From: a virus
IMG/VR virus record: IMGVR_UViG_3300027793_000078
Span: 14,478 to 78,477 of that record
Strand: one strand, 5' to 3'
Length of the DNA stretch: 64,000 nucleotides
The position numbers and the translations under genes were made by a program. The notes under the pieces were generated by a model. That model made no database searches and had not been told where the DNA came from. It saw nothing but the letters and a program-made list of their open reading frames with translations. Below, one piece after another: positions 2,114 through 26,085 of this stretch (positions are counted from its first letter, which is position 1; every line of letters begins with the position of its first letter).

Positions 2114-4948
2114 ATGAATTACACTGAATATTACAAGCATCTGATGAACGAGGCACTTGGTGATGTAGAAAGAATAAAGTGGAAACAACAGGTTCCAACT
2201 TTAACTAATAACATTATCAACAGCTATATTGAAAAATTTGATACAATACGTAAAACTCGTCCATCTGCCGCACAACATGATATAGACGACTTTAATATAG
2301 CAAAGGGTAATGATCGATATGATATTAGTAAATATAATAATTGGAAAGACTTTGAAGCATTTGTCGATTATGTAAATGGTCAAATTGATTTGGAAAAATC
2401 CAAAGGAAAGAAATTCACTGATATTAAAGTTGATGGCAAGCCGCTTGTTGAGAAAAATGGGTTGGAAATATACTATGCGATGGATAAACATGCTTGTATT
2501 AGATACAAAGGCGATAAACCTTATAGCTGGTGCATAAGTCGAAGTGACTCAAGCAACATGTATAACACATATCGTTATAAATATAATGAACCTAGTTTCT
2601 ATTTTGTAAAAGATATTGAAGCAACACAAAAAGAGTTTGAACATGGATTTGATGGAACATTTAAAAATCCGTGGCATTTCTTTGTAATCCAAAAAACTAA
2701 AGATGGAGATTATATTGTTACAAATGCTGACAACAACGGAGACGCAACAATGTCATGGAATCACATTTTAAGAATTCAGCCAAAATTAAATGGAATGGAA
2801 GAATATTTTGTAAATGTGCCGTTGTCTGATATTGAAAAACAAAACTATGAACGGTTCATAGATGGATTGAGTGATCGAGAATTTGCAAAATTAAATTACA
2901 AAGAAAAAGAATCATATTTGGATATTGCTATTCCAAATAATGAATTAACGGATTTTAAATTTAAATCTCTGCCGGATGATTTAAAAAATAAATATATTGG
3001 ATTTGGAATAAGAATTACACCGGGTCAATATGAAATAATCAAAAAAAATAAGTCTTTACTCAAAAGACTAACTGAAATATCTATTAGAAGATTCGAATTG
3101 TATAAACAAAATCAACTATATTTATGGGATTTGAGTGATATTGACTTTAAAGCGATTGCAGCATCACCAAATGCTGCACGAATTTTACAATTTAAAACCG
3201 ACGATGATTTTTTTAGATTTATAAAAATGTTTGGTGCTGACTTAGATGAAGTAATAAAGTTACTTGGACTTGATACATTAACCACCTTATTCAAACGATA
3301 CCCACAAAAAGCATTTGAGTTATATGATGATCTCGAAATAACAAAACAAATTGTTCAAATATTGGGTGAACATATGAAATTTGTTTCTATTAAAGCTCCG
3401 GAGGGGTATTCATCTAGTAATTATGGACCTACGTATCGTAATTTTTATACTGATAATGTAAATAATCTTATATCGGTAATCGACTTGATTTTAAAATATC
3501 GTGATAAATTGAGTATAACAGAGTGTGATTATATTTTAAGAAATCATATGTATGGCTTTGATACAGATGACGAAAACACCATCAGCAACAAAATTTTTGA
3601 ACTGTATAAACAAGGTAAAATTGAACATGCCAATGAAGTTCCTCTTGGATTGAACAAAGAATATGTTGCCGATCTTTTAGCATGGATATTAATGACAAAC
3701 AAAAATCCTGAAAAAATTTTTGATTATGTAGATTTTTCAATTTGGCAACATTTAACACAGAATACATTAAAGATGTTGTTTAAAAGCCAAAATAAAATAA
3801 TACACAAGAAACTTGCACCAATTTTTAAAGATTCTTTAAAAATAGGGCCACTTATGTACGATTTTATAATGACTGTGGTAAGAGGTGACAGAAATAAAAT
3901 TCTTAATTTTGTACAAAAAATGGGAGGAGTTGAAAACATAAGAAATCGTATGCCAGAATATGGAATTTCAACTATTTTATACAACACACCAACAATAAAT
4001 TTGCCACTAATCGCGTCATTGATTCCAAAAAAACTTATTGAAAAATTAACTGGATACGATATTAGATCAATTATTAAAAGTTCACTTGGTGAACCTAATA
4101 AATTCAACGACAAAAGTTCAAATGTCAGACTACCATTATTATTCAAAATTATAGGTGCGACGGCAATAACAAATGCAATGAAAGGATCTGAATTGTATTT
4201 TTTATTAAGCGAAGTTGTTAAAAGCTATTCACCATCTGTTGTTGACAAAAATTCTATTGATAATTTTTGCGAATTGATAATTAAAACAAAGGGAAATGAA
4301 CTAGAAAGCGGTAAACTGTTAAACGAGGTAGAAGCAATATTGACATTTTCAAATAATATTAAACGAATGTTTGATTTAATCGATAAAGAAAAAATTGATA
4401 ATTTGAATAACGAAAGTGTTTATAGTTTATTAAAACATAGTTTTTTTGAGAAAAATTTTAGCAAAAACATAGAACTTTTGGAATTATTGGGAGCAAATAA
4501 TGTATCAAAAGCATTAGAAGTTTTCGACGCATCATACAATGCATATTATGATAATTCATATGATTTTTTTTCAAGTGCATCAAGAAAGCCGCCATTGTTT
4601 GAATATTTGATAAAACAGTTAGTTGCATCAGGTAGAAATATGAACAGTGCCATAATAGGTAATATAATTAGTTGTACCATGAGTGTTGATCTTGAAAAAA
4701 TAGGAAATATATTGGGTGCGGAAAAAATTTCATTATTAAGTGATCATATAATTGGATATAACATGTCGAAACGATCAGATAAAGATTCATTAATTACTTT
4801 ACTTATTAAATCTTTTGATAAGCAAAAATTAATAGATTTGATGATAACAAGTGTCGGAAAAAACTGGGAATCTCAAGTATCAAAACAAACATATCAAATG
4901 CTAACCGGCGTGACGGAACATTTATTATACAAAAATTACTATTTATAA
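2114..4948 (+). CDS. Large hypothetical protein with N-terminal YTEYYKHLMNE tag, probable virion-internal protein
   Basis: 944 aa ORF; TATTTATA at 2098-2105; paralogous to upstream ORF. Confidence 0.7.
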   Translation: MNYTEYYKHLMNEALGDVERIKWKQQVPTLTNNIINSYIEKFDTIRKTRPSAAQHDIDDFNIAKGNDRYDISKYNNWKDFEAFVDYVNGQIDLEKSKGKKFTDIKVDGKPLVEKNGLEIYYAMDKHACIRYKGDKPYSWCISRSDSSNMYNTYRYKYNEPSFYFVKDIEATQKEFEHGFDGTFKNPWHFFVIQKTKDGDYIVTNADNNGDATMSWNHILRIQPKLNGMEEYFVNVPLSDIEKQNYERFIDGLSDREFAKLNYKEKESYLDIAIPNNELTDFKFKSLPDDLKNKYIGFGIRITPGQYEIIKKNKSLLKRLTEISIRRFELYKQNQLYLWDLSDIDFKAIAASPNAARILQFKTDDDFFRFIKMFGADLDEVIKLLGLDTLTTLFKRYPQKAFELYDDLEITKQIVQILGEHMKFVSIKAPEGYSSSNYGPTYRNFYTDNVNNLISVIDLILKYRDKLSITECDYILRNHMYGFDTDDENTISNKIFELYKQGKIEHANEVPLGLNKEYVADLLAWILMTNKNPEKIFDYVDFSIWQHLTQNTLKMLFKSQNKIIHKKLAPIFKDSLKIGPLMYDFIMTVVRGDRNKILNFVQKMGGVENIRNRMPEYGISTILYNTPTINLPLIASLIPKKLIEKLTGYDIRSIIKSSLGEPNKFNDKSSNVRLPLLFKIIGATAITNAMKGSELYFLLSEVVKSYSPSVVDKNSIDNFCELIIKTKGNELESGKLLNEVEAILTFSNNIKRMFDLIDKEKIDNLNNESVYSLLKHSFFEKNFSKNIELLELLGANNVSKALEVFDASYNAYYDNSYDFFSSASRKPPLFEYLIKQLVASGRNMNSAIIGNIISCTMSVDLEKIGNILGAEKISLLSDHIIGYNMSKRSDKDSLITLLIKSFDKQKLIDLMITSVGKNWESQVSKQTYQMLTGVTEHLLYKNYYL

Positions 4949-4956
4949 GATAAAAA

Positions 4957-5514
4957 ATGAAATATACAGATTATTATAAACATTTATTATTTGAGTCTTT
5001 AGTTGATAAAAAAATTATAGATGTTCCTAAAGAACCGGGAACAGTTCCTATTCCGAGTAATCATCTTAGATTGTATCATTATACCGACGCAAGCAATGAT
5101 GAACTTGAAAGAGATGGTTTATTGATTTCCAAAGCGAAAGGACATATGTATGGAGAGCCAGATTTTGTTTGGGCTTCATTGAAGCAACCCGGTAATTACA
5201 AAAAATATGTAGAATTTAGTGTACCTATTGATGATCCTAGATTCAGCATGTGGGGTTCTAAACCAGATGCTTATAGAGGTGCTGAGTTTTATTCAGGTAA
5301 AAGCAATGATTTTACATTTCAAGGTGATATAAAACCAAATGAATTCATTGCAATACATGAACCGTGGCATCATCACTATAGATATATTGTAAATGAAAAG
5401 CCAAGCATAGTACAAAACGTATTAGATGGCGAGTATGATTATTTATTGCAAAAAAAATCAACTCCTGATGAAGCACAAGCGATCAATGCAATTAAAATAA
5501 ACTATGGTAATTAA
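4957..5514 (+). CDS. Putative ADP-ribosyltransferase-fold protein with N-terminal tag
   Basis: LYHYT...DGL...FVWAS...F.GDIKP pattern resembles small phage ART-like domains; tag MKYTDYYKHLLFE. Confidence 0.4.
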   Translation: MKYTDYYKHLLFESLVDKKIIDVPKEPGTVPIPSNHLRLYHYTDASNDELERDGLLISKAKGHMYGEPDFVWASLKQPGNYKKYVEFSVPIDDPRFSMWGSKPDAYRGAEFYSGKSNDFTFQGDIKPNEFIAIHEPWHHHYRYIVNEKPSIVQNVLDGEYDYLLQKKSTPDEAQAINAIKINYGN

Positions 5515-5517
5515 AAT

Positions 5518-6084
5518 ATGAAATACACTGATTTTTATACAAATTTATTAAATGAAGATACTCCAGACATTGAATTAACTGGGAAAACGGTGACGGCAAA
5601 TAATGTACCTTTAAAAAATTTAGATTTAGCTGCCGTGGAAAAAAACATTGTTATGTTTAGAATGCCACATTCAAATTCATTTTTTGGAGAAGGTTACACG
5701 CTGATATATTTTATGGATAGTGAACAATCAGCACAGGACATGATAAACAACAAGATACCATATTTAACGGTTCCTAGAGGAACATTTACCAGCGGCGGCA
5801 GCCCAATAACTGATATTTGGAAAAATCGTTTTCAGAAACCCGGAACAGAACACATTTTAGGCGTAATAGAAGGATGGACAAATAAAGATAAAATTTATAT
5901 TGATATGATTACAGTCCGTCCCAAATATCGACGAAATACCATTGCTCAAAAAATGATAGCTATCATAAGAAAATCATTTCCAAATGCAAAAATAAGTTAT
6001 TCACATGCCACTCCAGCAGGATCTAAGTTTTTTACGTCATATCAAAAAAACATTCCACCCGAACAATGGCAGGGAGAAAAATAA
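5518..6084 (+). CDS. GNAT-family acetyltransferase with N-terminal tag
   Basis: IYIDMITVRPKYRRNTIAQKMI (motif A) and TPAGSKFF; tag MKYTDFYTNLLNE. Confidence 0.65.
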   Translation: MKYTDFYTNLLNEDTPDIELTGKTVTANNVPLKNLDLAAVEKNIVMFRMPHSNSFFGEGYTLIYFMDSEQSAQDMINNKIPYLTVPRGTFTSGGSPITDIWKNRFQKPGTEHILGVIEGWTNKDKIYIDMITVRPKYRRNTIAQKMIAIIRKSFPNAKISYSHATPAGSKFFTSYQKNIPPEQWQGEK

Positions 6085-6276
6085 ATGCATAACTATACGC
6101 CTAGTGAAGAAAGATATATTGTTGCAGTTGGTCATCATAGATTATTATGGATTGGACAATATTTTGGAAAATGGATGGCTAATTAAACGATTATAATAAC
6201 AATTAATGGTTATAATATTTCTATTTATAATTAATTTAAAATAAGTTATATCATTTAAATGTAATATTTATATTGT

Positions 6277-6819
6277 ATGAAAAAAGAAACACTTGTCAGT
6301 TTGATAAAAGAATGCATTCAAGAAATTTTGAATGAAAATAATTTGGCCGCTAAAACTTTTTCCTATAATCGACATAATTTGTTAAAGGAATTAGAAGAAT
6401 CCAGCAAATGTAAATGTGGAAGCGGATTAGACAGTGACTGGAAATTAGATAGTCGTGGTATTCCATTAGCAAAAGTATGTCCAGAATGTGAAGTTAATAC
6501 ACTAAAAGGATTTCGTAGAGATGTTCTATTGGACCCAAACTATAAAAAAAATAAATCAATTGACCAAGATATTGATGAATCAACGATGTCATACAGTCAA
6601 CTCGTTCAACGTTTCGCGGCAGAATCAAAAAAGAAATATAAAAACGCTGACATAAATAAAGTATATCTTTATTGCATCAAAAATCCAAATGCTACAATTC
6701 TTCATTTAGAAAAAGATCCTGTACTTAATGATCCTACCGAATTTAATGACGATACAAGATACGCTATTTACTATGTATTTGGTAAATTAGGCCGAGAAAA
6801 AATGCACCACATCGTATGA
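6277..6819 (+). CDS. Hypothetical protein with Cys-rich (CxCGSG...CxxC) zinc-binding segment and N-terminal tag
   Basis: KCKCGSG...DSRGIPLAKVCPEC; starts LIKECIQEILNE; TATTTATA at 6265-6272. Confidence 0.55.
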   Translation: MKKETLVSLIKECIQEILNENNLAAKTFSYNRHNLLKELEESSKCKCGSGLDSDWKLDSRGIPLAKVCPECEVNTLKGFRRDVLLDPNYKKNKSIDQDIDESTMSYSQLVQRFAAESKKKYKNADINKVYLYCIKNPNATILHLEKDPVLNDPTEFNDDTRYAIYYVFGKLGREKMHHIV

Positions 6820-6897
6820 TGTAAGAAATTAAATATATAGTAGTTGCAGAATATAATAAATTGACGTGATTATCATTTTGTGTTAGATTGTCGTAGT

Positions 6898-7170
6898 ATG
6901 AACACAAAAAAAGACACTACAATCAAAGCTACTACTGTAATACACGTTACATTACAAGATCAAAACTTCACACTTTCTCAAGCAGATGCATATCATCTTT
7001 ATTATGCATTGGCGACTGCATTGGGAATATATCCGCATTATTATTCAGGTACTATAAATACACCATTTACTTCGCAGAATAATAGCGGTACTCCATTGCC
7101 ACAACCCGCATTTATGACCAGTGAGGGAACACCTATTAATCTTGTCGCAAATATTACTGGACCTAAATAA
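6898..7170 (+). CDS. Hypothetical protein
   Basis: ATG just downstream of TTGACG-N17-TAGATT promoter. Confidence 0.5.
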   Translation: MNTKKDTTIKATTVIHVTLQDQNFTLSQADAYHLYYALATALGIYPHYYSGTINTPFTSQNNSGTPLPQPAFMTSEGTPINLVANITGPK

Positions 7171-7171
7171 T

Positions 7172-7519
7172 ATGTTTACAAATACAACTATAATTTTGTC
7201 TGGATTCACAAACAACATCACATCACAAAATAATGAAATTTCCGTATTGAGAAACAATCAACCTGATATTTGGGTTGCAATACTAATTACTATTGGCCTA
7301 TTGATATTGGTCAAATTTATGTTTAGTATTGAATACCGTAAATATCAGTCTAGAAAATATCTACGTATGAACGAAAATCTATTATCAGAAGAAAAATTGA
7401 AAATTATGTATTCAAACATTCGTGCAAAATACAACGACAGACAATTGGAATTTCCATTTGTAAAAGAAATTGATGATGCTTATGTAGCTGCCCGATATAA
7501 TCTCAATGCACATGAGTAA
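7172..7519 (+). CDS. Hypothetical membrane protein
   Basis: One hydrophobic segment IWVAILITIGLLILVKFMF. Confidence 0.5.
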   Translation: MFTNTTIILSGFTNNITSQNNEISVLRNNQPDIWVAILITIGLLILVKFMFSIEYRKYQSRKYLRMNENLLSEEKLKIMYSNIRAKYNDRQLEFPFVKEIDDAYVAARYNLNAHE

Positions 7520-7751
7520 AAGAGTATTTTTCTTTCATTACAACAAACCTGCAAGTCGCAGTGCCAATGCACCTAAAATGACTGTTCATTACAAAGGTGT
7601 ATGTCACATTGTAGATCATATTATTTGCAGCGTAAGCGTTCATACACATCATAATAAACGACAGCCGCATGTTGTTTTAAAAGGAAAAGCCAATAATATA
7701 GTGTTTATTGAAGATGTTCCATCCAAAGAAACGACAGCACTAATAACGTAA
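7512..7751 (+). CDS. Small hypothetical phage protein
   Basis: FFFHYNKP...MTVHYKG...QPHVVLKG; tightly packed with neighbours. Confidence 0.5.
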   Translation: MSKRVFFFHYNKPASRSANAPKMTVHYKGVCHIVDHIICSVSVHTHHNKRQPHVVLKGKANNIVFIEDVPSKETTALIT

Positions 7752-7824
7752 AAGTTGCGTTTATCATCTATTATGATTGAAATATTCCCGATTATATCCA
7801 TTTTCGGGAATATTTATTTTAAAT

Positions 7825-8925
7825 ATGATAACATACAAACAACTTGCAGAAGCAATTCTTTTAGAAAATAATAATTTTCGAGGCGAGTATTGGATACAAG
7901 ATGGATACGTTCAATTTGCTGATGGTGATGTTGGTGATTTAAATCATGAAGCGATTGTTATACAAAGTGCCGCCAGTCAAGTTCTGTCGCACATAGGTAT
8001 AGATGCAGATGAACCATATATACCAGATATGGATGATGAAATTTATGAAGCCATACAAAATGATCTGCCTGAAGAAATACAAACACAATACGTAGACGGG
8101 GAAATATCAGCAAAAGATTGTTTAAAGTATTATGGCAAACATGTATTACAAAATGCAAAATTTGATGAATTGGTTGATGCTGCATATGATCGTATTGATG
8201 TAAGACGTTTTGCAATGCGTGAATGGGGATGGAAAGCTATTCGTGGAAACAACGTAGACACATGGAATTTAACATCCGAAGATTTGAAAAAAATAAGTTC
8301 TGGATTAAGTGATGCTTATGACGCAGAAATTACTCAATATGAACAAAATAACAAATCAGTTGATGAAAATGGATTTGCCGGACCATATTTTAATATTGAA
8401 GTGTATAGTGTAGGTGACTATTATAGTGATGTTCCATTTTCACTAATTGAAAGCAAAAATGTGGCATCGTTGCGTCCTTATAAAACGATTAACAGAGGAG
8501 AACGTATTACAGAATCAAATGGACTCGTCGGACGAGTTGAATTGCCAAGCAAAAAAAATAAAATAGACGATTCATTACGACAGGAATTAAATGATTTGAG
8601 TAAAAAGTACGAAGAAAATTTGGATTCAAGAGCATACGGATATGTAGATCACATTAAATTAGACGCATTAGTGGCTAAAAAAACAGCGCCTGTTGGAACT
8701 GGGTCTGCATACATGAATGAGTTATGTCGTATCGCAGACAAATATCAACGAATCATCGTATTGTATACAGCTACAAGAGGATATGGCGGCGGAAATGGTT
8801 TTAAAAAAACAACCAGCACTGATCGAATAAAAAGATTTTATCAACGATTTGGATTTGTCAGTAATTATAGTAACCCCGATTATAACCCGGATTTAGGTGG
8901 TAATATGCACCGCAATCCAAAATAA
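7825..8925 (+). CDS. Two-domain protein: unknown N-domain + C-terminal GNAT-like domain, N-terminal tag
   Basis: GTGSAYMNELCRIADKY...RIKRFYQRFGF; start moved to ATG after TATTTAT (7811); tag YKQLAEAILLE. Confidence 0.6.
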   Translation: MITYKQLAEAILLENNNFRGEYWIQDGYVQFADGDVGDLNHEAIVIQSAASQVLSHIGIDADEPYIPDMDDEIYEAIQNDLPEEIQTQYVDGEISAKDCLKYYGKHVLQNAKFDELVDAAYDRIDVRRFAMREWGWKAIRGNNVDTWNLTSEDLKKISSGLSDAYDAEITQYEQNNKSVDENGFAGPYFNIEVYSVGDYYSDVPFSLIESKNVASLRPYKTINRGERITESNGLVGRVELPSKKNKIDDSLRQELNDLSKKYEENLDSRAYGYVDHIKLDALVAKKTAPVGTGSAYMNELCRIADKYQRIIVLYTATRGYGGGNGFKKTTSTDRIKRFYQRFGFVSNYSNPDYNPDLGGNMHRNPK

Positions 8926-8997
8926 AACAATTTAAAAAATTATTATATGTTGTTTATAACTGATGATTTGATATACTTATGAGTATATAACTACGTT

Positions 8998-10011
8998 ATG
9001 ATATACGCTGAAGATGGATTTAAAGATGACGAAATTTACTTAAAAAATGTAGCAAGTTTAATACGTGAATATTGTGATCAATACAAAAAAGAACACAATG
9101 AACTAATGCCAAAATATGAAATGGCACAGCCGTATGTTAAATCCAAATATCCAAATTGCACAAGTTCAGATTTTCGCAGAGCAATGCATATTTATTGCAC
9201 CGACTTGCTTTTATATACTGAATTAACGAAAACGTCAGTATATAAAGATTTACAACGTGCATATTTGATGTTTCCAAAAAACATGAAGAGATTGGCTGAA
9301 TGTGCGAATGTCACTGAAGAAATGGCTTCATTTTATACGAGATTTTGGGCATCAAATGGTGACAAACTTTCAGATGAATGTTTATATAAATTCAACCTAC
9401 ATTATCAATCGTATTTAGATGGAGAAATATTAATATCTGAATTTTCAAAGAAAATTTTTAATTCAACAAATGCGGTTCAAATTTTGCTACTTCATATGCA
9501 GCAAAATTTTTTGATTAGTAAATCGCATTATCAAAAAGCACAGAGCAAGATAAAAAAACGCGGGTTAGAATTTAAAATAACTGGCGATTATATTAATAAA
9601 ATCTTTGTTGAACAAAATGGTAGATGTGCGGTAACAAATACACCAATTTGTTCTTTTTATACAGATAGAAATGCAGTTTCTCCTTTGGTTTACAGTATTG
9701 ACAGAATAGATAATGCAGTGGGGTATCTTCCCGGCAACATTAGACTTACCACAAAAAATGCAAATATGTGTCGTGGCAGTCTTACTGTAAATGAATTTAA
9801 AGAATTCATTGTTGTTGCATTTATGAATATTGCCCGTGAAAATAAAAATTTAAATCATCTTTATGATGAAAAAATATTGGAAAAAATATCATTTGATAAA
9901 GAACCACACGCACTATTATCCAACGTAAATGACTGCGACGATCTTTTAATATTTACAGAAAAATCAAAGGTTGAAACTAAAAAAGTTGAATATGATTACT
10001 GTTACGAGTAA
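8998..10011 (+). CDS. Protein with C-terminal HNH-like (His-Me finger) endonuclease domain
   Basis: QNGRCAVT...SIDRIDNAVGYLPGNIRLTTKNANMCRG. Confidence 0.65.
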   Translation: MIYAEDGFKDDEIYLKNVASLIREYCDQYKKEHNELMPKYEMAQPYVKSKYPNCTSSDFRRAMHIYCTDLLLYTELTKTSVYKDLQRAYLMFPKNMKRLAECANVTEEMASFYTRFWASNGDKLSDECLYKFNLHYQSYLDGEILISEFSKKIFNSTNAVQILLLHMQQNFLISKSHYQKAQSKIKKRGLEFKITGDYINKIFVEQNGRCAVTNTPICSFYTDRNAVSPLVYSIDRIDNAVGYLPGNIRLTTKNANMCRGSLTVNEFKEFIVVAFMNIARENKNLNHLYDEKILEKISFDKEPHALLSNVNDCDDLLIFTEKSKVETKKVEYDYCYE

Positions 10012-10020
10012 ACAAAACAA

Positions 10021-10245: not shown

Positions 10246-10286
10246 GAAATTGAATCTAATTTTTTATAATGATACTATGTATCACT

Positions 10287-11226: not shown

Positions 11227-11238
11227 TATTTATAGGAT

Positions 11239-11979
11239 ATGAATTTATACCGAGAATTTTACGAATCATTGAAAGAAGCTGCGTCTGAACCATTTCTTTT
11301 GGGTTATATTGGAAGAAAAGCATTTAATAATGGCAAAATAGAAGTAAAGATTGTTACAGATGATGATGCAAGACATCCTCAAGAATGGAGCGAAAGTGGA
11401 CTTACATGGAGATTTGTACCAGAAGTTAATATGTTAACATTTTGGGAAAAGCCATCAAGAGAAGAATTATTAGCCGTAAAAAACTGGTTGGAAAAAAACA
11501 AGTATGATGTAAAAAGAACTCATATTTATGGTCAATCGTACAATATCAAGCGATATGCTCCTGATACGCCTGAAATGAAAAGAAAACCGCTTGGAGTTGA
11601 TGAAAATACAAATAAAAAGTATTGTGCGGTTTTGTTGGATGAAGTATCACAAAAGAAACTTAAAAGTTTATTTGGCGATTTGATTCCTCAAAATTGGACA
11701 TTAAAATGTCATCATATGACTATTGATCCGTTCAATGAATGTGCTGATAATGTTGGAAAATCTGTGAATTTGATGTTGACACACTTTGGTAAAAGTGATA
11801 AAGCATGTGCTGTAAAAGTTGTTGGATACAAAGGAACCACGAATAATGCATTTCCTCATGTAACCATTGCCGTGAATGAAGCTGACGGCGGCAAAGCAAA
11901 AGATAGTAATACAATTACAGAATGGACACCTATTCGTAAACATATTACACTTACGGGAACAATAGAAAACTTGGAATGA
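11239..11979 (+). CDS. Tagged two-domain protein with C-terminal 2H phosphoesterase
   Basis: HHMTI and PHVTI motifs; tag YREFYESLKE; TATTTATA at 11227. Confidence 0.7.
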   Translation: MNLYREFYESLKEAASEPFLLGYIGRKAFNNGKIEVKIVTDDDARHPQEWSESGLTWRFVPEVNMLTFWEKPSREELLAVKNWLEKNKYDVKRTHIYGQSYNIKRYAPDTPEMKRKPLGVDENTNKKYCAVLLDEVSQKKLKSLFGDLIPQNWTLKCHHMTIDPFNECADNVGKSVNLMLTHFGKSDKACAVKVVGYKGTTNNAFPHVTIAVNEADGGKAKDSNTITEWTPIRKHITLTGTIENLE

Positions 11980-11983
11980 ATTT

Positions 11984-13414
11984 ATGATTAGTTTAAAAGA
12001 GTTATTGATGGAAGGAGCAAAAGAAAATGCTGCATTGGATTATTTGCAGCATTTGGTACGTAATGGGCCATTCAAAGGAAGAGTTTACCTTGCAGGCGGT
12101 GCTGTGCGTGATATGCAACTTGGTAAAGATCCAAAAGATTTGGATGTTGTTGTTACAGGCGGCATTGATGCTGGTATGGAATTTGCCAAATGGGCAACTC
12201 AATACATGAATAATTTCAAGGAAGGCAGCAATCCTGTGCTGTTTCCTACATATGGTACTGCTAAATTTACATTGAGTGGTATCGTTCATAATGGTATTGA
12301 TTTGAGTGATGTCGATATTGAAGCAGTTGCAACCAGAAAAGAAAAATATAGTAGTGGCAGTCGCAAGCCAGAAGTAAGTTCTGGTGATCTTGCCGATGAT
12401 GTTAATCGTAGAGATTTTACTGTTAATAGTCTGTTGAAAGACTTGACTAATGGTGAAATTTTGGATTTGACTGGATTGGGTAAACAAGATATTGCCGCTG
12501 GTATTATTCGCACTCCATTGAATCCTGATATTATTTTCAGTGAAGATCCTCTTCGTATGTTGAGAGCGGTTCGATTTGCTTTCAAATATGATTGGGATTT
12601 GCCATTATTTATGATTCGGGCATTGAAGCGCAATTCATCACAATTAAAAAATATTAGCAATGAACGTATTCGTGATGAACTGGATAAAATGCTTGTAACC
12701 GGTAGTCCAGATAGAGCAATTAAATTGCTACGCATTACAGGATTGTTAAACTATATCATTCCAGAATTTAAAAGTGCATACAAGATGACACAAAATGTTC
12801 ATCATAAGCATGATGTATTTACACATACGTTGGAAGTTCTGAAGAAAACTAAACCTGTGTTGGCTCAACGTTTAATGGCATTGTTTCACGATATTGGCAA
12901 AACTGTTACTCGTAGTGTAACTCCTACAGGTGTTCATTTTTATGGACACGAAGACAGTGGTGCTGATATGGCAAAAGACATTATGAAGCGACTGAAATAT
13001 CCAAATGAATTGGCTGACGCCGTTGCTTTGGGTGTTCAAAATCACATGCGCTTAAAGAGCGGCGGCGATGATGCAGTTAAACTGAGCGATAAAGCGTTGC
13101 GTAAATTTAAAGTTACTCTTGGCGATCAATTGGAAAATTTGCTTGATGTAATGCATGCAGATAATATTGCACATAGCGAAGCAAGCAGCATGCCAAATCA
13201 AATTGAAAATGTTAGAAAGCGTTTGGCAGCATTGCAAATGCCGACTGAAAAACCAAATTTACCTATCAATGGCAACGATTTGATTGCTTTGGGCTTGAAA
13301 CCGGGTCCACAATTTGCGAAGATTATGAGTGCAGTGACTGATGCTTGGTATGAAAACCCAAATATAAATCGTCAACAGGCACTTGAAATTGCTCGAAAAA
13401 TTGTAAATTTATGA
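11984..13414 (+). CDS. cca: CCA tRNA nucleotidyltransferase with HD domain
   Basis: GGAVRD, DLD, RRDFTVN, EDPLRMLRAVRF, ERIRDEL, HDIGK, KPGP. Confidence 0.92.
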   Translation: MISLKELLMEGAKENAALDYLQHLVRNGPFKGRVYLAGGAVRDMQLGKDPKDLDVVVTGGIDAGMEFAKWATQYMNNFKEGSNPVLFPTYGTAKFTLSGIVHNGIDLSDVDIEAVATRKEKYSSGSRKPEVSSGDLADDVNRRDFTVNSLLKDLTNGEILDLTGLGKQDIAAGIIRTPLNPDIIFSEDPLRMLRAVRFAFKYDWDLPLFMIRALKRNSSQLKNISNERIRDELDKMLVTGSPDRAIKLLRITGLLNYIIPEFKSAYKMTQNVHHKHDVFTHTLEVLKKTKPVLAQRLMALFHDIGKTVTRSVTPTGVHFYGHEDSGADMAKDIMKRLKYPNELADAVALGVQNHMRLKSGGDDAVKLSDKALRKFKVTLGDQLENLLDVMHADNIAHSEASSMPNQIENVRKRLAALQMPTEKPNLPINGNDLIALGLKPGPQFAKIMSAVTDAWYENPNINRQQALEIARKIVNL

Positions 13415-13641: not shown

Positions 13642-13650
13642 ATTAACCAA

Positions 13651-13686
13651 ACCCCGTAACTTTTATGAGTTACGGGGTCTTTTTTT
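13651..13686 (+). terminator. Rho-independent terminator
   Basis: ACCCCGTAAC/GTTACGGGGT stem + T tract. Confidence 0.85.
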
Positions 13687-13698
13687 ATATTTATAACT

Positions 13699-15132
13699 AT
13701 GCAATATAGCGATTTCTACAATTATTTGATAAACGAAGCGTTTGATAGTGTTTATTCTTTTTTATTGAATCCAGAACATGATGATACTGAATGGTATGAT
13801 TTGATTCGTAAATTTGAATCACATGGTGGCAAAGTTCTTGGACAAGGAAAATATGCAACTGTAATGGAGCATCCTTCTTGGAAATACGTATTGAAAGTAT
13901 TTAATGACGATGCGCCGTATATTAAATTTGTAAGATTTGCTTTGAAGAATCCACGTTCTTCATTTCCTGTATTTTATGACAAGCCTCGTAAAATTGTACC
14001 TCATTTCAAAAGATCCGAATCACATCCTTATTTGTATGTAGTTAAAACAGAAAAACTATATCCAATTAATAGAGACATATTTGGAGAAATTGAATATTAT
14101 TTGTATTACAACTATGAATTTGTTGATGATATGATTGCAAAATATAGTCGTGATAATGAAAAAGACAACATGTGGATTGAAATGAAGCACAAGTTGGAAA
14201 CATTAGAATCCAAATATCCTTCATTACCACAATTTAAAGAAGATTATAATTTTTTACTAACCAATGCTAATTTCGGTCAACTTGATATGCATGTGCATAA
14301 TATAATGCGTAGATCAAATGGAGAATTTGTTTTAATTGATCCATTTTGGCAAGGAGAATCAATTCATCAAATTCAAAAACGAGCATTTGATGCAGAAACA
14401 GATTATCCATATGACGAATATATTGCTTCTCCTATGTTAAAAGGTGGAGAATTACCAAAGAGAAAGCAGGTTCGTAAAATTAATTACAAACCAAAAGAAC
14501 CAGACTATAAGGCATCATATGGCGATGATTTTCCATTTTTTGAACAAAAAGTTAATAAAAAAGAATACGAACGTAGATATGAATTCATTCAAAAATATAT
14601 TGAGTCTTTAATTGAAAAAGCTCCCGGCAAAAATCGTGAAGAAAAATTAACTTATGTCTGGAATCATCACAAATCAACAATGGAAAAACTCATAGCAGGA
14701 TCACGCGCTTTGAGTAAACCATCCATTTTTGGTCGGATTGGTGATGAACATCCAGATTCTTATAAATCAAAATTTACAGCAGATAAGTATTATATTCGTT
14801 TTGGTGATTTGCCAAAAGGCGGCAAATCGAAAAACTATGCCACCAACGAAATGGAAATAGGAATTAGTTCTTATCCTGTTAAATGGAATATAGAAAAAAA
14901 TAAATGGGAAATAATTGAAGATCAATTGGAAGAATTTTCAGCACTTCATAGTTTGATATATGATATAACTATAGGAGAAGGACGACCTGTTTATTTGATT
15001 CAAGGTCAAGAATTGAATGATTTGGGTAGTGACGGAGAACCTATGTTGGATGTTAACAAAATTAAAATTATTAAACAATTACAGCCAGATGAATTCTTTA
15101 GTAAAGAATTAGGAAACAATTGGTATAGATAA
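13699..15132 (+). CDS. Protein kinase-like domain fused to unknown C-terminal domain(s), N-terminal tag
   Basis: VLGQGKYATV (Gly loop), VLKVF, DMHVHNIM, VLIDP; tag MQYSDFYNYLINE. Confidence 0.7.
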   Translation: MQYSDFYNYLINEAFDSVYSFLLNPEHDDTEWYDLIRKFESHGGKVLGQGKYATVMEHPSWKYVLKVFNDDAPYIKFVRFALKNPRSSFPVFYDKPRKIVPHFKRSESHPYLYVVKTEKLYPINRDIFGEIEYYLYYNYEFVDDMIAKYSRDNEKDNMWIEMKHKLETLESKYPSLPQFKEDYNFLLTNANFGQLDMHVHNIMRRSNGEFVLIDPFWQGESIHQIQKRAFDAETDYPYDEYIASPMLKGGELPKRKQVRKINYKPKEPDYKASYGDDFPFFEQKVNKKEYERRYEFIQKYIESLIEKAPGKNREEKLTYVWNHHKSTMEKLIAGSRALSKPSIFGRIGDEHPDSYKSKFTADKYYIRFGDLPKGGKSKNYATNEMEIGISSYPVKWNIEKNKWEIIEDQLEEFSALHSLIYDITIGEGRPVYLIQGQELNDLGSDGEPMLDVNKIKIIKQLQPDEFFSKELGNNWYR

Positions 15133-15147
15133 TAATATATATAAAAT

Positions 15148-15741
15148 ATGCATTTATCTAGATACGCAAAATTATTGGTTGAAAGTAACTTAACCCACGA
15201 TTCGTTTGGTCGTAAAATCAAAGCGGCAATTGAGACTATTTTTGATGTTGACGATGTAAACATACAAAAAACAAATTTTTCAAAAGGTCCAAAATTTGCA
15301 AATTCGCATTTTAGTGCTGTTTTAATTTTTAAGTATCGTAATATTCCTTTAGAAATGACAGTTCATTTTTATCACTTGAAATTTTCGAAAAGCGAATTGA
15401 AACATTTAACAACCAATCAATTTATGGATATGGTTCAATCTTCTGAATCTATACCCAAAATTGAAACGCCGGAAGATATATTGCGTTCTCCAAATATTCA
15501 AGTTATGTTAAGTGCTGTTTTAACGTATAAACCAGTTACATACACCAAAGACATTATCGGTATAGATGACATGGAAGATGTTAAAGACATTCATATCGGA
15601 ATCGTTAATTCAAATAATATAAGAAATTTAATGATCAAAGCAAAACAATTGATAGATAAATTGGGCGGAGATGATAATGCTCCTGATGAACCTGAACCGG
15701 TAGCGCCAATTCCTACAAATAAAAAATTAGTACCTGTATGA
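15148..15741 (+). CDS. Hypothetical protein with N-terminal tag
   Basis: Starts LSRYAKLLVES; Pro-rich tail. Confidence 0.55.
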   Translation: MHLSRYAKLLVESNLTHDSFGRKIKAAIETIFDVDDVNIQKTNFSKGPKFANSHFSAVLIFKYRNIPLEMTVHFYHLKFSKSELKHLTTNQFMDMVQSSESIPKIETPEDILRSPNIQVMLSAVLTYKPVTYTKDIIGIDDMEDVKDIHIGIVNSNNIRNLMIKAKQLIDKLGGDDNAPDEPEPVAPIPTNKKLVPV

Positions 15742-16070
15742 AAAATAAAATATCGTTAAAATCAATCTTAAAAGAAGCAATGATTATATTGCCTTTTGAT
15801 GTTAGAAGCAGTGGTGTTGGTGATTTTTATATTCAAATGGATGGTAACAATGCTGGCAAACCGTTTAAAGTAAAACCAGAAAAGGGCAATTATTATGCTG
15901 TAATTACAGATAAAAATATATTATTGCCAGAATATTTTTATTATGTAGTTGAGTATTTATATACATCCGGTGCATTCAAACAAGTTATTCATGGTACAAC
16001 AGTGCCACACTTGAATATCAAAGGATTTACTGAGGTTGTAGCTAAGTTTTTCTTTAAGACACCAAAGTAA
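15738..16070 (+). CDS. Stand-alone type I restriction S-subunit (HsdS TRD)-like fragment with N-terminal tag
   Basis: ILLPEYFYYVV..L......GTTVPHLN resembles the HsdS conserved segment; tag ISLKSILKE. Confidence 0.55.
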   Translation: MKNKISLKSILKEAMIILPFDVRSSGVGDFYIQMDGNNAGKPFKVKPEKGNYYAVITDKNILLPEYFYYVVEYLYTSGAFKQVIHGTTVPHLNIKGFTEVVAKFFFKTPK

Positions 16071-16076
16071 GATAAA

Positions 16077-16688
16077 TTAAACTTTTACTTTATCGAATTC
16101 AAGGTTATACTTCTTGCACATCTCAAGACATTTGCTATACGCCGCAAATGCTTCTGCTTTATTTGGACTTTGTGAAAGACGTTTCAACTTCTTGATTGTT
16201 TGATAAGTTGAGTGTGTCATTTCACCATAAATAAATTCATCCATTGCGGGTGCATGTTCAGCAGTTTTTTCAGTTGCCTCATCATGTTGCCAGCTACCAA
16301 ATTTGGTATTTTGTTCATTTAACAACAATTCTGGATTCTTATCCAAGTCTTCAACCAATCTGTTGAAATTAATGTTGTTGGCATCTGGATGTTCACGCAA
16401 TAGAAAATAAAGCATATTTAATATTGGAGTTCGTACTGTTGGACAAAAATTGGTTTGTGTTTCAAGAATTTCTTGTTCTGTAAAACCCTGTTTTTTACCC
16501 TCGGCAATCAATAATTGCATTTTTTTTGTACCCTCTTTTACTTCCTCGTTGTACTTAACAGTATAATTGGTAGCAGCTTCACTTAAATTTTTGTGTGATT
16601 TTTTGATCTCAGCTACTTGCTCTTTTAATCTAAAAGCAAAATCAGGATTCTTCTCAAAAACACTCAATGCATAATTATTGTTACTCAT
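16077..16688 (-). CDS. Hypothetical protein with C-terminal DUF2786-like domain
   Basis: IKKLKRLSQSPNKAEAFAAYSKCLEMCKKYNL. Confidence 0.55.
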   Translation of the reverse strand: MSNNNYALSVFEKNPDFAFRLKEQVAEIKKSHKNLSEAATNYTVKYNEEVKEGTKKMQLLIAEGKKQGFTEQEILETQTNFCPTVRTPILNMLYFLLREHPDANNINFNRLVEDLDKNPELLLNEQNTKFGSWQHDEATEKTAEHAPAMDEFIYGEMTHSTYQTIKKLKRLSQSPNKAEAFAAYSKCLEMCKKYNLEFDKVKV

Positions 16689-16757
16689 ATATACATATAT
16701 ATGAAGCAACTATTATAAAAACCTTGACTTTTTCATTTTTCTAGGTATTGTTGCCAT

Positions 16758-17798
16758 ATGAACAACGAAGATGTATTTGATGTGCCAAAGCCAAAAACGA
16801 AACTATTTGGTGAACGTGCCGCCCGTGTAACCACGGCAGAAATGAATGCTGTGTTTAACGAAATTCGCGGCATTTTTGCTGGTAGCACATACATTAGTCG
16901 CATGGATTTGAGCAAACCATTGCCTAGTAAAGAAGATCATGGTGATATTGACATTGTGGTGGAAACTTCACCGGGCACGGACTTGAAAGAGTATATTCGA
17001 TCATATCTTGTATATTCAGATCACTTTAAAAATTACCTAGTTGAAACGGTTAATAACGGCCCTATTATGCATTGTTTGTTTCATAGCTCGGCTATAAATA
17101 AACAAGTTCATGTGGATTTCATTTTTGCAAGTCCAGCAGAATATGATTCTACTCTGATGTATTTGGCCTACAACGACTTTAGTGGTATTTTGGGTGTAGT
17201 TACTCGAAAGCTAAAGTTTAACTACGGCAACAAAGGAATGTTTAAAATCTATGTGGACAAAAAGGGGCAATATCATTATATTCTATTGACTCACAACTTG
17301 GTTGATGGATTGAAGATGATGGGGTATGGAAACATTATTCACACCTATTATCATATTCAAAACAATGAAGATATTTCCAAGTTTATTGGATACAGTGATT
17401 TGTTTGATAGCAGCTATTTGATTGGAAGCGATTTGAATCGTGGTGATCGTAAACGTATGCGAGCAGGTCGCCCAAGTGCCCGTGATCTTAAAGGTAAATT
17501 GGTTGACCTAAATAAGAAGCGCAGTCAGATGGACGATGACTATTATTTCAAATTGTTGTTTCCTGACAAGTACGCTGAGTATTTGGCAAAATGCAAAGCT
17601 ATTGAAGATTATATTCCTCCCAAGAGCAAATACAATGGTAATTGGCTGATGCAAAAGTTTCCGGCAATCAAACCGGGACCAATCATTGGTAAAATTCAGT
17701 TGTATTGGTTGAAACGATATGGCGATCAACTAGACAATATTGACGAAAATCAATTGATTAGTGATACAAGTCAATATATTGCAGAAAATACAGTTTAA
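16758..17798 (+). CDS. Pol-beta-superfamily nucleotidyltransferase-like protein
   Basis: KEDHGDIDIVV, VHVDF; C-terminal KPGPIIGKI like CCA-enzyme tails; sigma70-like promoter immediately upstream. Confidence 0.6.
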   Translation: MNNEDVFDVPKPKTKLFGERAARVTTAEMNAVFNEIRGIFAGSTYISRMDLSKPLPSKEDHGDIDIVVETSPGTDLKEYIRSYLVYSDHFKNYLVETVNNGPIMHCLFHSSAINKQVHVDFIFASPAEYDSTLMYLAYNDFSGILGVVTRKLKFNYGNKGMFKIYVDKKGQYHYILLTHNLVDGLKMMGYGNIIHTYYHIQNNEDISKFIGYSDLFDSSYLIGSDLNRGDRKRMRAGRPSARDLKGKLVDLNKKRSQMDDDYYFKLLFPDKYAEYLAKCKAIEDYIPPKSKYNGNWLMQKFPAIKPGPIIGKIQLYWLKRYGDQLDNIDENQLISDTSQYIAENTV

Positions 17799-17802
17799 TA
17801 AC

Positions 17803-17833
17803 AAAACCCCGTCAAAAACGACGGGGTTTTTTT
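17803..17833 (+). terminator. Rho-independent terminator
   Basis: AAAACCCCGTC/GACGGGGTTTT + T tract. Confidence 0.85.
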
Positions 17834-17866
17834 CTAATTTTACTGAGAGACAGTATATTTATTGAT

Positions 17867-19240
17867 ATGCCTATACCAACAGACCACTTGATACTAGAAG
17901 GTAGAATATCAGATTTTAAGAAAAAGTATGCCTACAAATTGGCACCTGCGACTGTTAATTATATTATTGCCAATGATCCTAGTAAAAATCAGAAATATTT
18001 AGATTGGATAGGTAAATCTCTTGTGGCAGCAGATGAAGATGACGATTATATATCTCCAGAAGAAATGATGAAAGACATTGCATTGTTTCACAAAAATATC
18101 AAAGGCGTTGATATATACTCTCTCAAATCATTTGATCAATTGCAATCATTGGTACACAAACAAACAGAACCTTCATCAAGACAAAAAATACTTCAAGGCG
18201 CAGATATAATTGTAAATGATAAAAATTGGTTGGTTGTGGCTCCTAAAACACATGATGCAAGTATGTTTTTTGGTGGAAGCACTCGTTGGTGTATTAGTAC
18301 AAGTTCAGAATCTCACTGGGATAAACATTACAATGAGGATGGTGAAGCCATCATCATGCTTAAAAATAGAAAGAAAACATCAAGTAGCTTAGATTGGAAA
18401 CTTTGTTTAACTGTTCAACCGGGAGAAAGTGATTTGGATTATGCGTATATGTATGATGTTAAAGATTATGGAACAAGTGTTCGCAACAGCAGTTTTTATT
18501 CTTATGTCCCAGAATATGTGGTAGATAAAATAAATGATTATTTGTATAACAATCATGATGGTGCAGATCGTAGAGACACTTATACTCAAGAAAAAGAAGA
18601 AAAAGAAATAGAAGAATATATGCAACGTGAAGTAGTTGATGATATTCTAGCGAAATATATTCGACTAATAAGAGTAAAATATCCCAAATATGCAGAAAAA
18701 TTCAGTCGGGGTGATTTATTAGAATTTATTGATGAATTTGTTGGCGAAGAAATAGTAAAACAAATGTGCCGGCACATAGCTTCTTCGGCTATTGGTGAAT
18801 ATGGGTGGCAAGATATGCATATAAGAAGTTTGCAAGAGTTTGATAATTTTTTATACAGAGATTCACCAAGTAACGCCAATTTTTTCAATTATGCATTGGT
18901 AAGTTACGTTAATAAAGTTCTAGGAGTAGATATGTTATTAAATATAATTGAAAACAATATCGGCACATCAAACTTTAACCGGCTTGACTCGGATTATGAA
19001 ATAACAAACGCTTTAAATGATTGTGTTGAAAAATATGCGCTTGCGATAAATCAAGCAAACCAATTGCAATTACCAAACTTTCCACAAACAAAAGAAAAGT
19101 TTAAAAAATATGATATTGACGCCATTATTGAATTGCTAATAAAATATGGATATGATCAATTAGCAAATATAATAAAGTCATATAGCGTGAGAAAATTGCA
19201 AGAAATGCAATACAAACAATTCATTGTTTTCATGGTTTAA
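17867..19240 (+). CDS. Hypothetical protein with WCIS-motif domain (distant relative of first two ORFs), tagged
   Basis: DPSKNQKYLDWI, PKTHDAS...TRWCIS; starts HLILEG. Confidence 0.6.
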   Translation: MPIPTDHLILEGRISDFKKKYAYKLAPATVNYIIANDPSKNQKYLDWIGKSLVAADEDDDYISPEEMMKDIALFHKNIKGVDIYSLKSFDQLQSLVHKQTEPSSRQKILQGADIIVNDKNWLVVAPKTHDASMFFGGSTRWCISTSSESHWDKHYNEDGEAIIMLKNRKKTSSSLDWKLCLTVQPGESDLDYAYMYDVKDYGTSVRNSSFYSYVPEYVVDKINDYLYNNHDGADRRDTYTQEKEEKEIEEYMQREVVDDILAKYIRLIRVKYPKYAEKFSRGDLLEFIDEFVGEEIVKQMCRHIASSAIGEYGWQDMHIRSLQEFDNFLYRDSPSNANFFNYALVSYVNKVLGVDMLLNIIENNIGTSNFNRLDSDYEITNALNDCVEKYALAINQANQLQLPNFPQTKEKFKKYDIDAIIELLIKYGYDQLANIIKSYSVRKLQEMQYKQFIVFMV

Positions 19241-19256
19241 AAAACTATTTATACAA

Positions 19257-19598
19257 GTGACAAAGAACCAATTAAAGCAACTTATTGTTGAAGCTGTTAT
19301 TGAAACACAACAACAGCAAATTGATAATTTTTTAAGTGAATTTGCAAACTTCAACCTCAAAGAAGAAAAGAAACGTCTCAAAATATTAACTCGACGTTTA
19401 CAGGAATTGCATCGACATGCAAATACTGAATTGTTTAATAAATCTGATAAATATACAAGAGCGTTTTGGAAATTAAAAGAAGAAATTAAACAATTAAATG
19501 AAAAACTCAAACGCTACGAATCAGAAAAAGACTTAATTGATATATTTGCAAGAACACACAAACAATACGTTTTTAAAAAACATGGAAAAATTATATGA
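19257..19598 (+). CDS. Coiled-coil hypothetical protein with N-terminal tag (GTG start)
   Basis: GTG 3 nt after TATTTATA; (M)TKNQLKQLIVEAVIE. Confidence 0.55.
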   Translation: MTKNQLKQLIVEAVIETQQQQIDNFLSEFANFNLKEEKKRLKILTRRLQELHRHANTELFNKSDKYTRAFWKLKEEIKQLNEKLKRYESEKDLIDIFARTHKQYVFKKHGKII

Positions 19599-19882
19599 TA
19601 TTTGAAACCGACAAATTTGAATTTGAAATGGGCAGAATGGGATCATTGCATGCCACAAATGGATTTATTATAAAATACAAATGTGGCAAGGAAACATGTG
19701 AGATAAAATATGGAACCAGAACCAAGTTATCTACAATTAACGTGGGCAATGAACAAGCTGAAAAAGTTATTATTGATTTGATAAAAACAAATGTTAAAGA
19801 TAAAGATGCAAGAATTGAAAGCGTTGCCCGTGGCAAACAGAAAAATTCTACATATTTATCGATAATGGAAACATTAATATAA
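19595..19882 (+). CDS. Hypothetical protein
   Basis: ORF overlapping upstream stop (ATGA). Confidence 0.5.
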   Translation: MIFETDKFEFEMGRMGSLHATNGFIIKYKCGKETCEIKYGTRTKLSTINVGNEQAEKVIIDLIKTNVKDKDARIESVARGKQKNSTYLSIMETLI

Positions 19883-19894
19883 AGGAATAAAATT

Positions 19895-20104
19895 ATGATA
19901 GTCGCAGGTGGAATCGTAACACAAAAACCAATAGGTATTGTTAGTAACAATCCTAATTTTGCACAACAACAAGCACAAGCAGCGCAACGTGAAGCAGCAA
20001 AACAAGCTCAAGTTGACGCACTGGCAGCTAAATTAGCAGCGCAACATCAAGCACAACAAGCTCAAGCAGCAGACCACCAAAAAAAATGGACTGTAAAGTT
20101 CTAA
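19895..20104 (+). CDS. Small Gln/Ala-rich protein
   Basis: Low-complexity QA helix. Confidence 0.45.
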   Translation: MIVAGGIVTQKPIGIVSNNPNFAQQQAQAAQREAAKQAQVDALAAKLAAQHQAQQAQAADHQKKWTVKF

Positions 20105-20121
20105 TATAATATTTATTATAG

Positions 20122-20871
20122 ATGCAATCTAATAATTACAACATTGACGCGGAACTTGAACAGATTCTTCTTACAGAAGGATGGTTTGGTAATGTTCCTA
20201 GACTTGCATCTGTTGGTGGTTTGGCAGCAGCATTGGCATTTAATCCTACACAAGCAAAACCTGTAAATGTTTCTACTGTAAAACACTCTGTTGCTGCCGA
20301 TCTCCAATCTACAAAACCAAAAAGTACGCCGACTGTTACACCGTCAACAAGCAAAGAAGTTAAACCTTCAAATATATCAACCAGCTCAATGTTTGATTAT
20401 ATTAGCCAGTGGGAAGGCTTAAAAACAAAGGTATATAAAGATCATGTCGGAAATCCTACAATTGGAATAGGTCATTATTTGGATGGCAGTGAAACTGACA
20501 GAAATATTATTAAGACGATTTTTGGTGGATCTGTTGATTATGATTCTTTGCTGAAAGGATCACAAACATTGACCAAAGATCAAGTTGAAAAACTATTCAA
20601 CGTTGATGTAAAGATAAAAGAAAAACTAGCATCCAAGCTGATTCCAGACTACAATAGCTTTGATAAAAATACTAAGAATGCAATTGTTAACGCATTGTAT
20701 CGTGGTGATTTAGGACAAAAAACTATCAAGTTAATAAATGCCAAGGATTGGAAAAAGGCAGCAGCAGAGTATTTGAATCACTCTAATGCAAAGTCAGGTC
20801 CAGACCAAGTAAAACGTAGAATGAAAACCAATGCTGCATTGTTATACAAAAACGCTTCAAAGTCTCTTTAA
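20122..20871 (+). CDS. GH24 / T4-type lysozyme with N-terminal tag, hydrophobic segment and Ser/Thr/Pro linker
   Basis: WEGLKTKVYKDHVGNPTIGIGH; starts QILLTEG. Confidence 0.85.
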   Translation: MQSNNYNIDAELEQILLTEGWFGNVPRLASVGGLAAALAFNPTQAKPVNVSTVKHSVAADLQSTKPKSTPTVTPSTSKEVKPSNISTSSMFDYISQWEGLKTKVYKDHVGNPTIGIGHYLDGSETDRNIIKTIFGGSVDYDSLLKGSQTLTKDQVEKLFNVDVKIKEKLASKLIPDYNSFDKNTKNAIVNALYRGDLGQKTIKLINAKDWKKAAAEYLNHSNAKSGPDQVKRRMKTNAALLYKNASKSL

Positions 20872-20874
20872 TAT

Positions 20875-21378: not shown

Positions 21379-21413
21379 GTTAATACTATTTATAGTTGTT
21401 ATACAAATGTTTT

Positions 21414-26078: not shown

Positions 26079-26085
26079 AATTTTA

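Follow-up and report, generated by a model that had tools for sequence, protein, structure and literature searches.

Probable T4-style capsid-targeting leaders on an enzyme block of an uncultured huge phage

A 64,000-nucleotide stretch of uncultured viral DNA (the window; bases 14478–78477 of the 78,477-base IMG/VR virus record IMGVR_UViG_3300027793_000078) contains an array of genes whose products have unrelated bodies and related kinds of short N-terminal leader. These leaders are probably capsid-targeting propeptides in the style of bacteriophage T4, carried by an expanded and fast-changing enzyme arsenal of a huge phage. Fifteen leader genes with unrelated cargo were found in one 22-kb block, which extends from ~1.3 kb upstream of the window to position 20871, two of the genes starting upstream of the window. 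All coordinates are window positions, unless a relative is named. The record is 22% complete according to CheckV, which implies a genome of roughly 350 kb; its G+C content is ~30–37% and nearly all of its genes are on the plus strand. The relatives compared were a close one (G001), a distant complete genome of 362 kb (G003) and LR756511.1 (595 kb). A megablast search with 10 kb of the leader block against known phages gave no DNA-level match, and LR756511.1 was the only match in a protein search.

The leader pattern and its clustering

The leaders are 10–20 residues long, most commonly 13, and end in [L/I/V/M]-x-E followed by a small residue. The leader end was defined solely as the first [LIVM]-x-E, the residue that follows (P1′) not being used in the definition. 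Glu at P1 and L, I, V or M at P3 are present in all leaders, P4 is L or I in 13 of the 15, and P1′ is A, G, S, D, N or T in 15 of 15, against a background of 0.36. The leader genes are given below, with a slash after the terminal Glu and with the position of the upstream motif TATTTAT[A/T] (“motif”) where there is one.

1335 nt before the window: start of the leader gene furthest upstream
2–2068, plus strand: 3′ part (688 of 796 codons) of a leader gene with its ATG 322 nt upstream of the window; leader MKYTDYYNHLVTE/A
2114–4948, plus strand: 944-aa leader protein; leader MNYTEYYKHLMNE/A; motif TATTTATA at 2098–2105
4957–5514, plus strand: 185-aa leader protein with a predicted ADP-ribosyltransferase (ART)-like fold; leader MKYTDYYKHLLFE/S; motif 4940–4947
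5518–6084, plus strand: 188-aa leader protein, GNAT acetyltransferase; leader MKYTDFYTNLLNE/D
6277–6819, plus strand: 180-aa protein with a weaker, 20-residue leader ending ILNE/N; motif 6265–6272
7825–8925, plus strand: 366-aa leader protein; leader MITYKQLAEAILLE/N; motif 7811–7818
11239–11979, plus strand: 246-aa leader protein, its C-terminal half a 2H / tRNA-ligase-type cyclic phosphodiesterase (CPD); leader MNLYREFYESLKE/A; motif 11227–11234
11984–13414, plus strand: 476-aa leader protein, CCA-adding enzyme with HD domain; leader MISLKELLME/G
13699–15132, plus strand: 477-aa leader protein, its N-terminal half protein-kinase-like; leader MQYSDFYNYLINE/A; motif 13688–13695
15148–15741, plus strand: 197-aa leader protein with no family match; leader MHLSRYAKLLVE/S
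15738–16070, plus strand: 110-aa leader protein, DUF6943 (Pfam); leader MKNKISLKSILKE/A
17867–19240, plus strand: 457-aa protein with a weaker, 11-residue leader, MPIPTDHLILE/G, kept in G001; motif 17856–17863
19257–19598, plus strand: 113-aa protein, leader ending AVIE/T; GTG start, re-assigned from TTG 19224; motif 19246–19253
20122–20871, plus strand: 249-aa lysozyme with a weaker, 19-residue leader ending LLTE/G; motif 20110–20117

All 13 leaders quoted in a preliminary description of this DNA are at real gene starts, two of which were corrected: the open reading frame (ORF) at 7777 was moved to the ATG at 7825, and that at 19224 to the GTG at 19257, which lies 3 nt after a TATTTATA motif. 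For the statistics, each ATG with at least 60 open codons after it was scanned for a fixed pattern, consisting of M, 4–20 residues, two hydrophobic positions, any residue, Glu and a small residue, and genes were counted on a non-overlapping set. The pattern, which is found in 2.7% of internal 28-mers, occurs in 14 of the 27 genes of the block and in 1 of the 116 in the rest of the record (Fisher p = 3e-11), so that the leaders are confined to the block. Matches at true gene starts all lie between 1335 nt upstream of the window and 20122, the other matches outside the block in the ATG scan being internal ATGs. At the edge of a tRNA island, a small minus-strand ORF (23125–23283) has a type-A-like leader at its start, MDYRQVYLHLMSE/G; this ORF is the sole pattern match outside the block and is conserved in G001 (35640–35840).

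The proteins had also been described as unrelated and, after removal of the first 25 residues, only the 796-aa and 944-aa proteins are still alike. Chance or plain paralogy thus has next to nothing left in its favour. The sequence [LIVM]-x-E is short, and the three leaders that are weaker as sequence (17867, 20122 and 6277, the first two kept in G001) would not stand alone; for the core leader set, however, this explanation is refuted by the clustering, by the small P1′ residue of every leader and by the dissimilar bodies, similar beyond the leader in that one pair only.

Several leader types coexist in this genome (MKYTDYY.., MI.LS.YAKLL.., MISLKEL.. and MITY..). In IMG/VR, a pattern scan for the MKYTDYY leader matched nothing but the close relative G001 and a stray contig. 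Among the six closest leaders, codons vary at many synonymous sites (TAT/TAC, ACC/ACT/ACA, CTN/TTR and GAA/GAG); the conserved object is therefore the peptide, on which selection acts, and not the DNA or RNA.

The promoter-like motif TATTTAT[A/T] is found 3–9 nt before the start codon of nine leader genes and is associated with them (p = 2e-8), and it also precedes two convincing leaderless genes, an ORF at 30179 and a pilin-like ORF at 49791. The latter (49791–50258, 155 aa) has a type IV pilin-like N-terminus (..FTLVELL..), with TATTTATA at 49780–49787, 3 nt from its ATG. The distance between motif and start codon is 3–9 nt in G001 too, and mostly 12–17 nt in G003, with a second class at ~4 nt; in G003 it is also found upstream of the terminase, protease and core genes. 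The mRNAs behind the motif would be leaderless or nearly so, or else the motif is not a plain -10 element. This arrangement brings in a nucleic-acid explanation, in which the shared start would be a 5′ coding box for the translation of near-leaderless mRNAs, or a recombination linker between cassettes, and the peptide would have no role. A motif so close to the ATG means that the 5′ coding region could matter for initiation, and cassettes are indeed exchanged beside the leader. We nevertheless consider this explanation very unlikely: the six closest leaders keep their residues while their codons change, the unrelated leader types have only the peptide pattern hydrophobic-x-E-small in common, and no such leader is present on the two other real genes that this motif precedes.

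Leader exchange and T4-type head genes in relatives

The leaders behave as modules when the block is compared with that of G001, whose shared proteins are 79–90% identical and which contains 17 leader genes in a syntenic block. Nine cargo proteins of G001 are not found here, and three of this phage are not found in G001. The kinase of 13699–15132 and its G001 orthologue have different leader types, and their similarity resumes exactly after the Glu, at E/AFD. The leader and body of 15738–16070 form part of a larger protein (373 aa) in G001. When 5.8 billion proteins were searched with the 4957–5514 product, 43 homologues with one conserved body were obtained, preceded by leaders of the MKYTDYY type, the MIKLK type and others, in which hydrophobic-x-E stands a few residues before the body; a few of the homologues are leaderless, and an identical 185-aa protein is also encoded on a 319-kb contig. 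In the distant G003, where a dozen or more genes have MK..IK.LLRE leaders, the 2H cargo bears G003's own leader. At 19578–22527 of G001, MISLKEL is the leader of a 212-aa protein that contains a YHGT motif; behind its gene come a LAGLIDADG-type gene in the opposite orientation and then the gene of a leaderless CCA enzyme. Since MISLKEL is fused directly to the CCA enzyme here and not in G001, gain or loss of a leader by local rearrangement is possible.

The N-terminal ~330-residue domain of the 944-aa protein is kept across a clade of huge phages. Its family was found in 32 IMG/VR contigs, where most members start with a leader such as MKLSHIFKDLLNE/DFK behind ATATTTATA. Portal, scaffold and gp23 genes of the T4 type are present in LR756511.1 and in G003. 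LR756511.1 has, in this order, genes for a terminase, a gp20 portal, a glycosyltransferase, an unknown product, the S77 protease, the scaffold and gp23; leader genes come next, and include NADAR and PRTase enzymes and a member of the 944-aa family; the position of the leader genes directly after the capsid gene is shared by its relatives. A gp21-type protease had been expected in the same genome as the leaders. It is absent from the 78-kb fragment and present in the relatives, with one S77 protease in each of the four that are at least 86% complete and share the 944-aa family, one in the half-complete G009 and one in LR756511.1.

Among the 495 ORFs of G003, the proteins most enriched in [LIVM]-x-E-small belong to the head module. 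One of 254 aa, encoded between portal and protease, contains 11 such sites, compared with 2.7 in shuffled sequences, and a 411-aa protein of the same module contains 12, compared with 4.2; none of 5000 shuffles reached the count in either case. The G003 capsid protein contains LLTE/S at residue 60, near the start of mature T4 gp23* in the alignment.

Three further features of these genomes were observed. The portal gene of LR756511.1 (6447–9020 of its segment L001) carries an intein-like insertion (Pfam Intein_splicing), and the terminase gene of G003 (999 aa) aligns in two separated pieces, which suggests that it also holds an insertion. A G003 leader protein (11314–12252 of segment L049, minus strand) combines a P-loop kinase with a tRNA-ligase-type CPD domain; its interior has eight [LIVM]-x-E-small sites where 2.4 would be expected (p = 0.0014), and cleavage into modules is therefore possible. 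Finally, short ORFs of 97–148 aa resembling pieces of the T4-type major capsid protein are found far from any head module:

G001, 1411–1704 of segment L006: capsid-like short ORF (Pfam Gp23, 3.9e-11)
G003, 16062: capsid-like short ORF
G003, 316959: capsid-like short ORF

The leader could instead be a tag for a partner other than the capsid, with the Glu ending being coincidental: it might dock a modifying enzyme (one of the radical-SAM/SPASM family, for instance), lead to a chaperone or a secretion route, or address an intracellular compartment of the phage. N-terminal tags common to unrelated phage proteins can serve other partners, and the fragment contains no capsid gene. Still, such a tag seems fairly unlikely. 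No radical-SAM gene (PF04055) was found in the fragment, in G001 or in the complete G003, in a search whose control matched in 14 of 14 genomes; the tag agrees with that of T4 in length, in its P3/P1/P1′ pattern and in part of its sequence (PMC8442874); its terminal motif is also the one enriched in the G003 head-module proteins; and the leader genes directly follow the capsid gene in LR756511.1 and its relatives.

The T4-type reading agrees with all the computational tests applied and is supported by the modular leaders swapped at the Glu, by the S77, gp20 and gp23 genes of the relatives and by the motif enrichment in the G003 head module, while its protease is missing from the fragment. Several points weigh against it. 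Neither an S77 protease, a gp20 portal nor a gp23 capsid gene was found on the 78-kb fragment, which is 22% complete. Only 9 of 143 ORFs of the fragment are shared with G003, so the link to a T4-type head is drawn at the level of the clade. In G003 itself the motif excess of the scaffold is mostly compositional (p = 0.12). The CCA enzyme of G001 has no leader, and the packaging of this enzyme is thus not conserved; the leader of the lysozyme may be due to chance. The upstream motif, only 3–9 nt from the start codon, is oddly placed for a promoter, and it also precedes many homing-endonuclease genes in G003, for which reason it is no proof of late timing.

Cargo proteins

The largest cargo is the 944-aa protein, of which the 2–2068 product is a paralogue (56% identity over the first ~350 residues). 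It has no match in Pfam or PHROG, and its AlphaFold2 (AF2) model (pLDDT 77) gave no convincing fold match; for the N-terminal domain of the family, the best Foldseek E-value was 0.028, and a VIA-wide comparison yielded Z scores of at most 6.4, on the helical tail only. The idea that the large proteins are polyproteins was rejected, as each contains one or two strict motif sites, about the level of shuffled sequences. The 17867–19240 product contains a stretch (..TRWCISTS..H..Y..) resembling the invariant PYSWC(I/V)xRSD core of the 944-aa family, and may be a distant paralogue of it.

The ART-like protein named in the preliminary description corresponds to 4957–5514, for which an AF2 model built from 36 homologues (pLDDT 90.9) presents the leader as a separate low-confidence helix followed by coil. 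Most of the 50 structural neighbours listed are chains of the ADP-ribosyltransferase superfamily, including Tpt1/KptA, DarT, A subunits of the pertussis and cholera types, scabin and PARP16, and an Atlas lead points to DarT, PARP and Arr. The scores are middling, the best match being Tpt1/KptA (Z 6.6, root mean squared deviation 3.5, 78 residues aligned) and the best Foldseek E-value 0.014, so that the model suggests a fold like that of ADP-ribosyltransferases.

The GNAT, the CCA enzyme and the lysozyme of the preliminary description are supported by Pfam. The 5518–6084 protein matches Acetyltransf_13 with 24.3 bits (cut-off 22.8), as well as other GNAT models. The 11984–13414 protein matches PolyA_pol (3e-21), PolyA_pol_RNAbd (1e-16) and HD (3e-9), and also tRNA_NucTran2_2; it contains the PolyA_pol head, RNA-binding and HD domains of a class II CCA-adding enzyme, and CCA enzymes of the PDB align with it from residue 33 (7e-29), that is, behind the leader. 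The 20122–20871 protein matches Phage_lysozyme (3e-11); its leader is kept in G001 and is directly followed by a hydrophobic segment, so that the protein could be either a cargo lysozyme or an ordinary signal-anchor endolysin. The kinase assignment is supported by PHROG, the 13699–15132 protein matching family 15752 (T7 0.7-type kinase, 4e-8); a hairpin and T-run terminator lie ahead of the motif of this gene.

The leader-bearing 2H phosphoesterase of the preliminary description is found at 11239–11979. This protein contains two H-x-T motifs and, although its direct Pfam match reaches only E = 0.16, it shows 47% identity to a protein of G003 that scores above the threshold of the Pfam tRNA_lig_CPD model (24.2 bits, cut-off 23). 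A second 2H enzyme, detected by Pfam at 20875–21378, has no leader, and the earlier description does not hold for it. An HsdS-like domain, which had also been proposed, found no match in Pfam or PHROG. The C-terminal ~90 residues of the 7825–8925 protein, whose G001 orthologue has the same leader, match phage families of the ‘polyvalent’ type (phrog_10691 and phrog_11975) and look GNAT-like.

Two further features lie within or beside the block. An HNH-endonuclease-like gene (8998–10011; PHROG 3322, 3e-22), probably a mobile homing gene, lies within the leader array and is not found in G001. Just downstream of the leader block there is a tRNA island with seven genes:

24335–27323: Leu-taa, Glu-ttc, two Met-cat, Cys-gca, Ile-tat and Leu-caa

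The nature of the cargo bears on a further explanation, namely that the proteins do enter the prohead and are cut there, and that they then serve assembly (as core or scaffold helpers, or in DNA condensation) or are degraded, instead of being effectors directed at the host. The T4 protein IPIII has an effect on the morphogenesis of the head, and the majority of T4 core proteins end up degraded and expelled (PMC9026906); here, the conserved 944-aa family has no recognisable enzyme fold. We regard an assembly role as unlikely, however, given that for most of the cargo there are precedents of host-directed enzymes (ART fold, GNAT, kinase, CCA/HD and 2H), that the cargo of this phage, unlike core proteins, has no strong excess of internal cutting motifs, and that its fast turnover between close relatives fits an arms race better.

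Proposed mechanism and comparison with known systems

Under the T4-style interpretation, the block would correspond to an ‘internal protein’ locus with rapidly changing content, and the huge phage that carries it would have a head of the T4 type. Unrelated cargo proteins, most of them encoded behind TATTTAT[A/T], would each be made with a 10–20-residue N-terminal propeptide, which would direct the protein to the scaffolding core of the prohead. A gp21-type (S77) prohead protease, encoded outside the fragment, would clip after [L/I/V/M]-x-Glu, and the mature enzymes would remain in the head and exit with the DNA. Once ejected, they could work on host components (RNA polymerase or others, tRNA ends, the cell wall) before phage gene expression. 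We infer all of these steps, from targeting, cleavage and presence in the virion to ejection and early action, from the genes described above; injection and early action go a step beyond the capsid-targeting interpretation.

If this is true, the leader represents a simple sequence rule that flags virion-delivered proteins in uncultured huge phages, and it would yield a list of candidate enzymes for a first strike against host defences (ART, GNAT, kinase, tRNA repair), most of them unannotated. The capsid-targeting principle of T4 would be old and widespread, and scaled from four cargo proteins to more than 15, and the leaders could be used as packaging tags in phage engineering outside the T-even group. 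A more speculative proposal, which we put forward as doubtful, is that in a clade of huge T4-headed phages interchangeable leader ‘dialects’ form a plug-in system in which ~13 codons confer virion delivery on any enzyme. Coexisting dialects may then set copy number or position in the head, and injected enzymes of tRNA-end repair (CCA/HD, 2H/CPD), together with the ART, GNAT and kinase enzymes, would pre-empt tRNA-cutting and other abortive-infection defences before phage gene expression.

The principle itself is already known from the T4 internal proteins and Alt, and T4 reviews have already suggested that the tag is an evolutionary means of loading diverse proteins; among the papers available to the search, none was found that applies it to uncultured huge phages. 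The T4 internal proteins have N-terminal capsid-targeting sequences of 10–19 residues, the residues important for targeting being 4 and 7 and those important for processing 8 and 10; L/I-x-E is the site after which gp21 cleaves, and Alt, an ADP-ribosyltransferase, is packaged and trimmed (PMC9026906). The T4 tag reads MKTYQEFIAE (PMC8442874). As in IPI, IPII, IPIII and Alt, a short N-terminal propeptide (10–20 residues here, 7–19 in T4) precedes unrelated proteins and ends in hydrophobic-x-Glu before a small residue, and the cargo set varies between related phages. The leader MNLYREF.. has M1, Y4, E6 and F7 of the T4 tag, and MITY.. has T3 and Y4, whereas the commonest leader type here has aromatic residues at positions 3, 6 and 7. 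The ART-fold cargo parallels Alt, and relatives of this phage encode homologues of gp20, gp21 (S77) and gp23. Unlike T4, with its three internal proteins plus Alt, the phage described here has ~15 cargo genes in one 22-kb array, encoding mostly large enzymes of up to 944 aa, and several leader types in one genome, the usual leader being of 13 residues and of another sequence. It is also a huge uncultured phage (its relatives are ~300–600 kb), and its presumed protease gene lies off the fragment.

In the giant phages phiKZ and SPN3US, cleavage follows the motif S/A/G-x-E and the propeptides are usually long and are not known to share a common short tag, whereas here P3 is L, I, V or M and the tag is short and shared. 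In these phages many packaged ‘ejection’ proteins are trimmed after Glu by a prohead protease related to gp21 (gp175, gp245) (PMC10052503, PMC5694885), as is proposed for the products of the block. The polyvalent proteins of phages and conjugative elements offer a third comparison, as it has been suggested that ART, GNAT and other conflict enzymes accompany the DNA into the host (Iyer et al. 2017, PMC5512222), and the C-terminus of the 7825–8925 protein matches a PHROG family built on such giant proteins. In contrast to those fused polypeptides, the enzymes described here are encoded by separate genes, each with its own leader.

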